Assembly: GCA_026414125.1 (NCBI GenBank)
Contig: JAOAJQ010000001.1
Span: forward strand, 3,349 to 28,557
Direction of reading: 5' to 3'
Length of the DNA: 25,209 nucleotides
Origin: Thermoproteota archaeon
GTDB lineage: Archaea; Thermoproteota; EX4484-205; JAAOZP01
The position numbers were made by a program, and so were the translations under genes. Numbering within the stretch: the first letter of the stretch is position 1; every line of letters begins with the position of its first letter. The notes beneath the pieces were generated by a model. The model searched no databases. It was given only the letters and a program-made list of their open reading frames with translations, and had not been told where the DNA came from. This document shows positions 9,307 to 16,428 of the stretch, in pieces.

Positions 9307-11052
9307 ATGCAGCCACGTGGAAAAACAGGGTGTACGCTCGTCCCAATACTGATTCTAATAATGGTTTTCAGCCTTCTTGTAAGCATAAAGACGTCGGGCC
9401 AGTTCGAGCTTTCAGACCTCTATGTTTATGTGAAGGCCAACATGGATGAGGAGGCAATCGCTTTTTTCAACGTGAACCTGACGATGGGCCCGAAAACGAT
9501 AAGAGCGTTAGACGAGGCAAACTGGACTTTCAAGATACAGCTTCCAAAATGGGCGGCTCCAAACCTTGTTTTATCCGTAGACATGCCTAAACTATTCCTG
9601 GAGAATGGGGAAGCGATAGCTCTGAAGCTTGAGGAGGCTGAGGACTATGATTACTTGGTTGCAGAGATTCCTCCTTTTCAGGGTGAACGGCTGAACGTTA
9701 CAGTCAGGTTCGGCCTGGTTCAACGCGACAATGTGACTGAAGACTACGTGGGGTTTAAGCTACCGGTTTTAACCGGCTTCAGCATCATGCCTGAATACGT
9801 TAACTTCACCTTCTTAACCACGGGCGTGATTAAAGGGTATTCTCTGCAATACTTCCACCCTATTTTCCTGAACGACAGTGTAATAGGATTATGGAACCAG
9901 TATTTCCGGACGAAGACTGTGGGAAATGTGACTGGTAGAATAGTTTTCTCTAAATCGTTCGACAGGTGCGTGATAAAAAGCCTGGTTAGGGAGATAACTG
10001 TGGCTAAGCAGCTACAAGTCAAAGTGAAAGACTTGTTAAAGCTGAAATACGTTGGAAACTCCTACAGGAGTGAAATACTTAAGATAAACATCCCCACAAG
10101 TATTAATCAATCGGTTAAGGTGAAGGATGCGCTGGGCCCACTTCAAACATACTCTAGCGCATCATCAGTAGCCAACACGAGTGTTATAACGGTTTATTCG
10201 CGATACTCCTTGAGACCAGGCCAGGAGTATGAAGCAATAGTTGAATACAGCGTTCCTGTTAAAAACATGCTTGTGGGCTTAAACGGTGGTTTAACCACTA
10301 TTCGGTTGACAGGCTTGCCCAACTATACGGATATTGTCAGCACGTATTATTTAAGCGTGAGAGTAGAGGGTAGGAAAAGCTGGAAGATAGAGGCGGAGTC
10401 AACCGTTACAAGCATCGAAAACAGTGAGGCATTCTCCCTCACGATACGTAACGCTATGCCGGACATACTTGCCCAGCCTTTTCAGATCAGTTTCTCCTCA
10501 GCACAGCTAGAGGCTGGTAAAAGCATCTCAATGCTCCTCGGCTTATTGACGTTGCTCGTATTGATGGTGACTGAGATCTTCAGAGAGGAGGTTGCGAAGC
10601 CCGTTGAAGCTAAGGGAGGAAAAGAGGCTGAGAGGCTTGTGAACGATTTGGCTGAGGCTCTCCGTGAAAAGGTTGATTGCGAAACGCTTTTGGAGGAAAT
10701 CAAGGTTAAAAACGCTGTTGGAAAGATTTCTTCCAGAGAGTATAGGGAGAGAGTTGGAGAATACGAGAGGAGAATATCAAGAGCTGAGAAAAAGATTTTG
10801 AAAGCAATTGAGGAGGTCTCACGGATAAACACTAGGGTGGGCGAGGAGGTTGAGAGACGCTACAGGATCTTCGAGGAAATAAACAGCGATTCTAAAAACA
10901 TGATTAACAGCACTATCGAAAGGTTTAGAGGAGGACGCATCACGAGAAGCGTTTTCGAAAACCTGGCTGGAAAATACTTGAAGGAGAATAAAAAGAGAAG
11001 GGAGACGGCTGCGAGCGACTTATACTCAGCCCTAGAAAAACTACTGTCGTAG
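9307..11052 (+). CDS. Type I membrane glycoprotein resembling ribophorin I (OST1)
   Basis: N-terminal hydrophobic signal, about 375-aa beta-rich region with 10 N-x-S/T sequons, a single TM near aa 405-425, and a 155-aa helical tail. Motifs SLVREITV, VKDALG and RYSLRPG..YSVP recall ribophorin I. Confidence 0.6.
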   Translation: MQPRGKTGCTLVPILILIMVFSLLVSIKTSGQFELSDLYVYVKANMDEEAIAFFNVNLTMGPKTIRALDEANWTFKIQLPKWAAPNLVLSVDMPKLFLENGEAIALKLEEAEDYDYLVAEIPPFQGERLNVTVRFGLVQRDNVTEDYVGFKLPVLTGFSIMPEYVNFTFLTTGVIKGYSLQYFHPIFLNDSVIGLWNQYFRTKTVGNVTGRIVFSKSFDRCVIKSLVREITVAKQLQVKVKDLLKLKYVGNSYRSEILKINIPTSINQSVKVKDALGPLQTYSSASSVANTSVITVYSRYSLRPGQEYEAIVEYSVPVKNMLVGLNGGLTTIRLTGLPNYTDIVSTYYLSVRVEGRKSWKIEAESTVTSIENSEAFSLTIRNAMPDILAQPFQISFSSAQLEAGKSISMLLGLLTLLVLMVTEIFREEVAKPVEAKGGKEAERLVNDLAEALREKVDCETLLEEIKVKNAVGKISSREYRERVGEYERRISRAEKKILKAIEEVSRINTRVGEEVERRYRIFEEINSDSKNMINSTIERFRGGRITRSVFENLAGKYLKENKKRRETAASDLYSALEKLLS

Positions 11053-11134: not shown

Positions 11135-11266
11135 TAGCCCGGGAGAGATTCGAACTCTCATCAAGGGGTTTCTCCGCAAGCATACGCTAAACTGCACCAA
11201 AGCCCCCCATGTCTTGGCGCGACGCTTTGCCATTACAATCGACGCCTTTTTTGGCTCCACCGGGCT
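11135..11266 (-). tRNA. tRNA-Gln(TTG) with three introns: 10/11 (11256-11238, 19 nt), 21/22 (11226-11213, 14 nt), 37/38 (11196-11170, 27 nt)
   Basis: Removal gives AGCCCGG TG GTGT AATGGCAA ACAT G GGGGG CTTTGGA CCCCT TGAT GAGAG TTCGAAT CTCTC CCGGGCT A (72 nt, A1-U72 as in archaeal tRNA-Gln). Each junction has a 4-bp helix and 3-nt bulges: CGGT/GTCG, TGGC/GCCA, CTTT/GGAG. Confidence 0.9.
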
Positions 11267-11296
11267 TCCCGGGCTTGTTGTAAATCTGCTTGAGGG

Positions 11297-11311
11297 ATTA
11301 ATAACTTTTTA
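11297..11311 (-). promoter_or_regulatory. BRE/TATA promoter of tRNA-Gln
   Basis: Minus strand TAAAAAG-TTATTAAT. Usual spacing predicts a TSS near 11274-11276, about 9 nt before the mature 5' end. Confidence 0.65.
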
Positions 11312-14022: not shown

Positions 14023-16428
14023 ATGCAGAGTTTTGAAAAGCTTGGGGTATTCTACCTAGGTCGTCTTTACGATATTGAGAAGAAGTCTCCTTTGAATGAG
14101 TTGCTGCTTTACGACTCTAAGGATCTTGTTACACATGCAGTGTGCATCGGCATGACTGGGAGCGGGAAGACAGGATTATGCATTTCCCTTATCGAAGAGG
14201 CTGCGATTGACAGTGTCCCGGCTATTTTAATAGACCCTAAGGGGGATGTTGTGAACCTGCTTCTCACTTTTCCCGGGCTGCAGGGCCAGGATTTTCTGCC
14301 TTGGATAAATGAGGAGGACGCACTGAAAAAGGGGCTTTCTCCAGAAGAGTTTGCTGAGCAGCAGGCTGCTTTATGGAGGGAGGGATTGCAAAAATGGGGT
14401 CAGGATGGAAACCGTATTAAAAGGCTTCGTGATTCAGTTGAATTCCTAGTTTACACTCCTGGGAGCAATGCGGGGCTGCAGATTTCAATTCTGAAGTCTT
14501 TCGCAGCGCCTCCTCCCGAGATAATACAGGATGAGGAGCTTCTTCAAGAGAGGATAAACACGACGGTTACAAGCCTGCTTTCGCTTCTAGGGATAGAGGC
14601 TGACCCGATTAAATCAAGGGAGCATATTCTGCTGTCTAATATTCTTGCACAATGCTGGCGGAATGGTGAAGACCTAGATCTGGGACGCTTGATTCAACTC
14701 ATCCAGTCTCCGCCTTTGAAGCGTATCGGGGTTCTTGACCTAGAATCATTCTACCCGTCGAAAGACCGTTTCGAACTAGCCATGCGCCTGAATAATCTTC
14801 TCGCCGCGCCGGGCTTCAGCCTTTGGCTTGAAGGAGACCCGCTGGATGTAGGCCAGCTTCTTTACTCGCCGAGCGGTAAGCCGAGGGTAGCAATATTTTA
14901 CATTGCTCACTTGAATGATGCTCAACGAATGTTCTTCGTGTCTCTTCTCCTCAACCAGATAGTGGGGTGGGTGAGAACCCAGTCCGGCACCACGAGTTTA
15001 CGCGCCATACTTTACATCGACGAGGTCTTCGGGTTTCTTCCGCCTGTGGCTAATCCGCCTTCAAAACTCCCTCTCATAACCCTTCTGAAACAGGCTCGTG
15101 CTTTCGGGCTGGGCGTAGTGTTGGCGACGCAGAACCCGATAGACTTGGATTATAAGACGCTTTCGAATGCAGGCACATGGTTTCTCGGGCGGCTTCAGAC
15201 TGAACGGGACAAGGAACGGGTGTTAGACGGGCTCGAGGGCGCTGCGTTGGCAAGTCACAAACAGTTCAGCCGGCAGTATTTCGACAGGGTTCTGTCCGGC
15301 TTGGGGAATCGGATATTTCTTATGAATGATGTGCATGAAGACATGCCTGTGGTTTTCGAAACAAGATGGGCAATGTCCTACTTGCGGGGGCCTCTGACGA
15401 GGGAGCAGATCAAAGTACTGGCTGAGCCGATGAAAAAACAGCGTGGAAAATTAATCAGCCCACAGCCCACTCCTCATCCTGCAGTAGCCCCGTCTGCTCC
15501 AGCAGCATTAACAGCAACCGGTAAGAAACCCATCGTACCGCCTGGCATAAGAGAATATTATATGCCTTTTGAAAAAGAAACAGGAAAACGAGCAGAGCTG
15601 ACTTATCAACCTATGCTGATTGGGGCTGCACGTATTCAGTACTCGGTGCCGAAAGAGGGCATTTACATGACGTTGGAAAAAGCCTTCATCACTCCTATCA
15701 GCGAAAAACCAGTGCCTGTCAATTGGGACGAGGCTAAAGAAGTAGACGTGAAGGTCTCGGATCTTTTAGAAAAACCGCCGGAGGATTTGCCATATGCTGA
15801 TCTGCCTCCAGCTGCCATGAATGCGAAAAACTATGTTTACTGGGAGAAAGACTTTTCAAACTGGCTTTTAAGAACTCAGAAGCTCCAGCTTTTAAGAAGT
15901 CCTTCTCTCAACGAGTTGTCGAAACCAGGGGAAACCGAGCGTGACTTCAGGATTAGGCTTCAACAAATCGCAAGGGAAAAGCGTGACCAACAGATTGAAG
16001 AGCTTCGGAAGAAGTACACTACAGCCTTCGCCAGGCTAGATGAGCGGATAAGAAGGGCAAAAATGACTTTAGAGGAACAGCAGGCACAGGCTAAAAGCAG
16101 GGAATATGAGGCTGCAGTATCCTTGGGTGAAACCATTTTAGGCTCGATTCTTGGAAGAAGGTCAGGCACTCGTGCCACAAGGGCGACGAGAGAAATATCC
16201 CGTACTATGAAGGAGAGGAGGAATAAAGAACAAGCAGAGGAGAACCTGAAAGCCCTGCAACAGGAGCGGGAAAAACTTGAAGCCCAGTTCCAATCTGAGA
16301 TCAATTACATGGAAACAAAAATCAATCCTCTTGCTGAAACTTTCGAGAACGTATTATATGCGCCGAAAAAAACAAATATTCATGTTCAGCTAGTTACCCT
16401 AGTGTGGGTTCCTTCAAGCAGGGTTTAA
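14023..16428 (+). CDS. HerA/FtsK-superfamily (DUF87-like) ATPase with C-terminal coiled coil
   Basis: Walker A GMTGSGKT, LIDPKGD, Walker B LYIDE, LLKQARAFGLGVVLATQNP, Pro-rich linker and a long helical C-terminus. Confidence 0.85.
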   Translation: MQSFEKLGVFYLGRLYDIEKKSPLNELLLYDSKDLVTHAVCIGMTGSGKTGLCISLIEEAAIDSVPAILIDPKGDVVNLLLTFPGLQGQDFLPWINEEDALKKGLSPEEFAEQQAALWREGLQKWGQDGNRIKRLRDSVEFLVYTPGSNAGLQISILKSFAAPPPEIIQDEELLQERINTTVTSLLSLLGIEADPIKSREHILLSNILAQCWRNGEDLDLGRLIQLIQSPPLKRIGVLDLESFYPSKDRFELAMRLNNLLAAPGFSLWLEGDPLDVGQLLYSPSGKPRVAIFYIAHLNDAQRMFFVSLLLNQIVGWVRTQSGTTSLRAILYIDEVFGFLPPVANPPSKLPLITLLKQARAFGLGVVLATQNPIDLDYKTLSNAGTWFLGRLQTERDKERVLDGLEGAALASHKQFSRQYFDRVLSGLGNRIFLMNDVHEDMPVVFETRWAMSYLRGPLTREQIKVLAEPMKKQRGKLISPQPTPHPAVAPSAPAALTATGKKPIVPPGIREYYMPFEKETGKRAELTYQPMLIGAARIQYSVPKEGIYMTLEKAFITPISEKPVPVNWDEAKEVDVKVSDLLEKPPEDLPYADLPPAAMNAKNYVYWEKDFSNWLLRTQKLQLLRSPSLNELSKPGETERDFRIRLQQIAREKRDQQIEELRKKYTTAFARLDERIRRAKMTLEEQQAQAKSREYEAAVSLGETILGSILGRRSGTRATRATREISRTMKERRNKEQAEENLKALQQEREKLEAQFQSEINYMETKINPLAETFENVLYAPKKTNIHVQLVTLVWVPSSRV

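Follow-up and report, generated by a model that had tools for sequence, protein, structure and literature searches.

The window analyzed here, a stretch of 25,209 nt from the genome of a Thermoproteota archaeon, carries on its minus strand a tRNA-Gln(UUG) gene with three introns and, directly upstream, a second copy of the 5′ strand of the acceptor stem. The features of the locus are listed below, with positions numbered from the first letter of the window.

11135–11266, minus strand: tRNA-Gln(UUG) gene with three introns, 132 nt to the discriminator A73; spliced product called by ARAGORN
11297–11310, minus strand: promoter, comprising an A-rich, BRE-like stretch and the TATA box TTATTAAT at 11304–11297; read from the sequence
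11267–11275, minus strand: putative leader decoy AGCCCGGGA, positions −9 to −1, a copy of acceptor nt 1–7 plus GA; complementary to U64–U72
11259–11262, minus strand: acceptor nt C5–U8, which form the 5′ side of the 4-bp central helix in the BHB of intron 1
11238–11256, minus strand: intron 1 (10/11), 19 nt, with an inner 3-bp helix (GCC with GGC) and bulges GG|A and AU|U
11243–11240, minus strand: GUCG, the central-helix strand inside intron 1 and partner of C5–U8; GCCG in most relatives
11213–11226, minus strand: intron 2 (D loop), 14 nt
11170–11196, minus strand: intron 3 (canonical 37/38), 27 nt
11136–11144, minus strand: U64–U72, the putative decoy target, comprising the 3′ acceptor strand and the two final bases of the T stem

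The unspliced gene was missed by ARAGORN and by Rfam, the latter at both gathering and permissive thresholds. The intron model was built by hand and then verified on the spliced product: removal of the three introns leaves 72 nt that ARAGORN calls as tRNA-Gln(ttg) and that fold as a cloverleaf. Intron 1 fits a relaxed BHB at a non-canonical position, its central helix of 4 bp being flanked by a 3-nt bulge on either strand and the cut sites falling behind the second base of each bulge. The inner GCC/GGC helix of 3 bp lies right behind the 5′ bulge, the outer helix consists of C4–G12 alone, and excision of intron 1 together with the other two yields a canonical tRNA. A preliminary description of the locus, made from sequence alone, had stated that this BHB needs nt 4–8; indeed, the central helix uses nt 5–8, and C4 takes part in the outer pair. 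Because the central helix uses C5–U8, the BHB of intron 1 and the acceptor stem are mutually exclusive.

Two open reading frames of the window lie on the opposite strand. The first, at 9307–11052 (plus strand), is located just downstream of the tRNA-Gln gene and encodes 581 aa with no Pfam match at E <= 0.001. The second, at 14023–16428 (plus strand), encodes an 801-aa protein with a weak HerA/DUF87 match; its relatives, 55–90% identical, are found in archaeal, Acidobacteriota, Chloroflexota, and Campylobacterales MAGs, which suggests horizontal spread.

On the minus strand, 11276–11257 reads AAGCCCGG-G-AAGCCCGG-TGG, with the second copy opening the tRNA. The preliminary description had reported both this duplication of the tRNA 5′ end and the TATA box at 11304–11297, and both are confirmed. 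It had also proposed that the leader copy, AGCCCGGG at 11275–11268, can form 8 bp with nt 65–72. This held, the copy being complementary to C65–U72, and a ninth pair, between A(−1) at 11267 and U64, extends the helix to 9 bp with U64–U72, one more than originally counted. The window as a whole contains 5 exact tandem 8-mers at a period of 8–12, vs 2.3 expected (maximum 8) in Markov shuffles. Because this count fits the shuffles, the tandem repeat by itself is not significant; the signal is the place of the copy at the 5′ end of a tRNA, together with its conservation, and not the repeat per se.

The position of the promoter predicts that the copy is transcribed. In ~19 other tRNA genes of the source genome, the end of the TATA 8-mer lies 22–26 nt from the mature 5′ end, so these ordinary genes should have leaders of only 0–4 nt. 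(These distances were taken by eye, automatic TATA picking being noisy.) In the tRNA-Gln gene, the corresponding distance to +1 is 30 nt, which places the predicted start at A(−9) or G(−8), i.e., window position 11275 or 11274, with the copy inside the transcript. The leader would then be hardly longer than the copy itself, although this is a prediction from TATA spacing and the start has not been mapped. The earlier suggestion of a transcription start near 11274–11276, with transcription of the copy, is supported to the same extent, as a prediction from the TATA spacing of the genome. A tRNA-Leu gene elsewhere in the genome (G000 contig C56, plus strand, start 4173) also has a long leader, with its TATA box 31 nt upstream. 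This leader contains GGCCAA, which resembles a D-arm segment beside a D-arm intron, maybe by chance.

Conservation of the leader copy and its co-occurrence with the 10/11 intron

The close relatives of the source organism are hot-spring MAGs labelled Thermoproteota or Candidatus Brockarchaeota. Fourteen same-genus orthologues and the window gene make up a set of 15 tRNA-Gln genes, all of which have the 10/11 intron. Just before the tRNA, the core GCCCGGGA is invariant in 15/15, one gene having an extra A, and the promoter block AAAGTTATTAA is likewise kept in every gene. The spacer between TATA box and leader, the intron loops, and the trailers diverge. Invariance of the leader core while neighboring segments drift makes purifying selection on it likely. 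Position −9 is variable (A, G, or U), meaning that the leader copy cannot be base 1 of the tRNA. As for the other introns of these genes, the D-loop intron is present in 9/15 and the 37/38 intron is missing from 7/15; both come and go species by species within the genus, with the 10/11 intron fixed.

The pattern extends across the class, which consists of one order and was surveyed in 26 genomes. The copy precedes all 23 class tRNA-Gln genes that have the 10/11 intron, of both UUG and CUG isoacceptors, with a spacer of 1–4 nt. Intron and copy are both missing from ten Gln-CUG genes of the genus and from one Gln-UUG gene, that of G017.

We surveyed the phylum (401 genomes) with a pattern drawn from exon 1, the 3′ end of the intron, and exon 2; the leader was not used. 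The pattern found 24 Gln genes with a 10/11 intron in 15 of the 401 genomes, spanning 10 families, the source genus included. In 24/24, the leader contains an element capable of pairing with the 3′ acceptor strand, at spacers of 1–11 nt. Genomes with this layout in the sample include two assembled as single contigs, G352 and G376. Beyond the class, each of 18 further tRNA-Gln genes with the 10/11 intron, from 8 other families, carries the copy. Among the 24, the leader contains exact GCCCGG in 21, AGCUCG(G) in two, and AGCCGGC in one, with the AGCUCG(G) variants still able to pair with the 3′ strand via G·U. In these families, the copy starts 21–25 nt past the TATA 8-mer (again by eye), which is the predicted transcription start. 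For comparison, 263 genomes contain ~428 instances of tRNA-Gln with an uninterrupted 5′ part. By a strict criterion, exact GCCCGG no more than 5 nt upstream, 14/24 intron genes have the copy, vs ~4/~428 uninterrupted genes (about 1%). We give no P value because related genomes are not independent; the number of independent evolutionary events is small, and isoacceptors in one genus have identical introns.

A copy, decayed in one case, persists in seven genes that lack a 10/11 intron. In G021 and G024, the intron has been lost and GGCCCGGGA is retained; in G019, it has also been lost, and GCCCGAAA in the leader looks decayed. G018 and G020 retain the copy and have a homologous intron at 15/16 instead of 10/11. 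In three genomes of one family (f31: L109–L111 in G176, G111, and G146), the leader contains AGCCCGGAC and the gene has a D-loop intron without a 10/11 intron. A few intron-less genes thus probably retain the copy, or a decayed version of it, after loss of the intron; the decoy model presented below does not account for the f31 copies unless they too are relics. With these exceptions, the comparative pattern predicted in the preliminary description, i.e., duplication in genes with the intron and no duplication in genes without it, is borne out.

Other introns were observed in the course of this survey. The 15/16 intron (L020 and L069, in G018 and G020) has a sequence like that of the 10/11 intron and pairs with D-stem nt 10–13, which looks like intron sliding. 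Three tRNA-Gln genes (L069, L129, and L143) have an additional intron within the T arm, in its 3′ half, and that of L069 terminates in a repeat of the preceding exon bases.

A second case in tRNA-Phe, and folding models

When the source genome (G000) was scanned for T arms accompanied by matching acceptor strands, ~28 tRNA genes emerged. An acceptor-invading BHB is present in only two of them, and these two alone also carry the 5′ strand in tandem copy. The second gene is a tRNA-Phe(GAA) gene outside the window (L021:467–595, on G000 contig C20). It reads GGCGAGG-A-GGCGAG, followed by a 15-nt intron at 6/7, in which CGCU pairs with G1–G4 of the second copy to form the central helix. Intron and copy are both present in three genomes of the genus and both absent from five. 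Each copy, Phe and Gln, matches the acceptor stem of its own tRNA, which rules out a common DNA motif. The TATA end lies 24–26 nt from the first tRNA-Phe copy, and 26 nt from +1 in intron-less orthologues. The promoter thus holds its distance to the first copy, from which we infer that the old 5′ end perhaps became the decoy at intron gain. Alternatively, the exon could be the first copy, with the second acting as a decoy inside the intron, which would leave the principle unchanged.

The effect of the leader on RNA folding was modelled with ViennaRNA/RNAfold, which covers secondary structure only; tertiary structure lies outside the model. With the 9-nt leader, the tRNA-Gln precursor forms the 9-bp leader helix (P = 0.97) and almost never the true acceptor stem (P = 0.003); without the leader, the acceptor stem forms with P = 0.98. 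The central helix of the BHB has a P of about 0 in the window gene with or without the leader, and only its relative cost shifts. Because unconstrained RNAfold never populates this 4-bp helix, we compared the cost of forcing the BHB. For the window gene, this cost is 12.5 kcal/mol when the leader is absent or replaced by poly-A, vs 5.5 kcal/mol with the native leader; at 70 C, the values are 12.8 and 6.7 kcal/mol, respectively. The model therefore predicts that the leader makes the splice-competent fold about 6 kcal/mol cheaper, and none of 60 shuffled leaders matched this saving. Across the 24 genes from 10 families, the leader brings the cost down from 7.1 to 1.0 kcal/mol, the smallest saving being 2.7 kcal/mol, and for tRNA-Phe it falls from 7–9 to 1.8–3.2 kcal/mol.

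Two aspects of the models complicate this picture. In two dimensions, the decoy helix is still preferred after splicing (P = 0.96), as it is in natural intron-less genes that retain the copy (P = 0.97) and that must mature anyway. We infer that the switch back must depend on tertiary structure and on the irreversible cleavage by RNase P. Furthermore, the near-palindromic sequence of the Gln acceptor gives the leader a second possible partner, the true 5′ strand. For tRNA-Gln only, the model of the nascent transcript predicted a 5-bp hairpin of leader and true 5′ strand (P = 0.98) until the 3′ strand was made. The Gln gene alone cannot separate the 3′ strand from the 5′ strand as the target of the leader.

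The proposed decoy and rival explanations

We propose that the 9-nt leader is a cis-acting decoy strand for splicing at 10/11. We consider this the likely explanation on the basis of comparison and modelling; there is no transcript or enzymatic evidence. The analysis itself establishes complementarity, conservation, co-occurrence with the intron, and model energetics. In the proposed pathway, the leader copy, at the extreme 5′ end of the primary transcript, would pair with U64–U72, which would release the true 5′ acceptor strand without leaving the 3′ strand unpaired. The freed C5–U8 would join GUCG of intron 1 in the BHB, and the splicing endonuclease would then cleave. Ligation would remove the partner of C5–U8 and restore the D arm; the genuine acceptor stem and the L-shape would displace the leader, and RNase P would then cut the leader off. 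Intron 1 would thus be spliced ahead of 5′ maturation. The start of transcription, the conformers present in vivo, the return to the true acceptor stem, and the timing with respect to RNase P are all inferred. The preliminary description had already suggested that a decoy on the 3′ strand frees the 5′ strand, for which comparison and modelling now provide support without bench evidence, and that the leader could postpone RNase P until the intron is removed, which remains inference only.

The enzymes that this pathway calls upon are at least partly visible in the genomes. A type-A RNase P RNA is present in the source genome (G000:C14:3949–4201, 129.8 bits) and in 22 of 25 other genomes searched, 24 of those 25 being from the class. 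The splicing endonuclease EndA (PF01974) has two paralogues in each of three near-complete genomes of the genus, as a heteromeric type would have; one PF01974 paralogue was found in the source genome, which is 70% complete.

Several other explanations of the copy can be considered. The most serious holds that pairing of the conserved leader, be it with the 3′ strand or the true 5′ strand, serves a function other than splicing, e.g., timing or blocking of RNase P, protection of the 3′ end against CCA addition or exonucleases, or a quality-control gate, with only an indirect link to the intron. In favor of such a role are the copies without a 10/11 intron in G021, G024, G018, G020, and the three f31 genomes, and, in the models, the 5-bp hairpin that the nascent leader first forms with the true 5′ strand (P = 0.98) and the hiding of the RNase P site in the decoy conformer. 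However, the copy is present in all genes with the 10/11 intron and nearly missing from the ~428 Gln genes without one, tRNA-Phe acquired intron and copy together, and the copy in G019 looks decayed following loss of the intron. We therefore regard a non-splicing role as unlikely. Less likely still is that the copy is a functionless footprint of intron gain, i.e., a short duplication at the insertion site. The TATA spacing of tRNA-Phe does look like an insertion of 8 + 15 nt behind the old 5′ end, and the Gln copy likewise begins at the predicted transcription start. A neutral 8-mer, however, would not be expected to be invariant in the genus and recognizable in 10 families while spacers, loops, and trailers diverge, and substitutions in the leader preserve pairing via G·U. 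The footprint reading may account for the origin of the copy but not for its maintenance.

An element acting at the level of DNA, such as an initiator, a promoter-proximal site, or a protein-binding palindrome, is similarly very improbable. The position of the copy, at the predicted start site, and the palindrome CCCGGG speak for it. Against it, GGCGAGG of tRNA-Phe is no palindrome and corresponds to the acceptor strand of that tRNA rather than to the Gln motif; nothing similar is found at ~19 ordinary tRNA promoters of the genome; and the spacing from copy to +1 ranges from 1 to 11 nt. A chance tandem repeat, for which it can be said that the window has comparable tandem 8-mers by chance, is contradicted by conservation and co-occurrence, and can be all but dismissed. 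The same holds for a fourth, tiny intron or an alternative 5′ exon: 9 nt is too short for a BHB, the base needed as U8 is G in the first copy, and position −9 is variable. Three other candidates were rejected. Removal of the leader by the endonuclease would require a BHB at the −1/+1 junction, where no 4-bp helix with 3-nt bulges can be drawn. A leader of the split or permuted tRNA type does not fit a gene that is contiguous and a leader that pairs with U64–U72 and not into the BHB. Lastly, partial duplication of a tRNA, with a repeat tens of bases long, can flank an integrase element (PMC3293823), but for a relic of such an att site the repeat is only 8–9 nt, the copies directly adjoin, and there is no inserted element.

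The decoy strand that we favor would solve a specific problem. It has been unclear how the endonuclease obtains its BHB when an intron adjoins or invades the acceptor stem, since BHB and cloverleaf are exclusive; a decoy would give access to the BHB at such acceptor-side introns. If correct, it would couple splicing to 5′ maturation in a fixed order, and it would account for leaders longer than the near-leaderless norm of the genome. It would also supply gene finders with an easy sequence signature of tRNA genes overlooked by ARAGORN and Rfam, and make intron gain and loss traceable, since copies linger or decay once the intron is lost. A bolder reading, on which we would not wager in either direction, is that, in archaeal tRNA genes generally, any BHB intron whose central helix intrudes into the acceptor stem depends on a transcribed spare acceptor strand, in most cases at the transcription start, and that decoys are born when the old 5′ end is duplicated at intron gain. 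Were this true, the order would be obligatory, splicing first and RNase P second, and the signature could be used to find hidden multi-intron tRNAs and to reconstruct intron gain, sliding, and loss.

Comparison with known systems

To our knowledge, no leader decoy of this kind has been published. The preliminary description knew of no example, and we found none in reviews of archaeal tRNA introns and disrupted tRNA genes or in the open-access literature searched; the search was not exhaustive and did not cover subscription papers. Non-canonical and multiple BHB introns are known from archaeal tRNAs of the Thermoproteales and others (PMC4090602, PMC4033280), and the 10/11, D-loop, and 37/38 introns described here are ordinary members of this group. 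Such introns have a 4-bp central helix and 3-nt bulges, are cut by an endonuclease of broad specificity, and form their BHB only on partial unfolding of the cloverleaf (PMC4090602, PMC4033280). The same reviews contain no leader-encoded strand that replaces the displaced acceptor strand, as is present here.

Split and permuted tRNAs of Nanoarchaeum, Caldivirga, and Thermofilum (PMC3218864, PMC3978253) are similar in that a flank outside the tRNA provides base pairs that enable cleavage by the endonuclease. In those genes, however, the flank is a strand of the BHB and is removed by the endonuclease, whereas the leader described here lies outside the BHB, pairs with the 3′ acceptor strand, and would require removal by RNase P. 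Ordered processing has a parallel as well: Tocchini-Valentini and co-workers (PNAS 2009) are reported to have shown that splicing of multi-intron pre-tRNAs is ordered by mutually exclusive folds. Alternative pairings of the precursor would set the order of processing in both cases, but in the reported system the switch is between introns, with no leader element and no interplay with RNase P, unlike here.

More distant parallels come from outside tRNA biology. In attenuators, riboswitches, and leader-assisted folding of rRNA, a 5′ segment transiently takes one strand of a helix and so chooses between exclusive structures. The strand-swap logic is the same as that proposed for the tRNA-Gln leader; what it controls in those systems is transcription, translation, or rRNA folding, rather than the excision of a tRNA intron.
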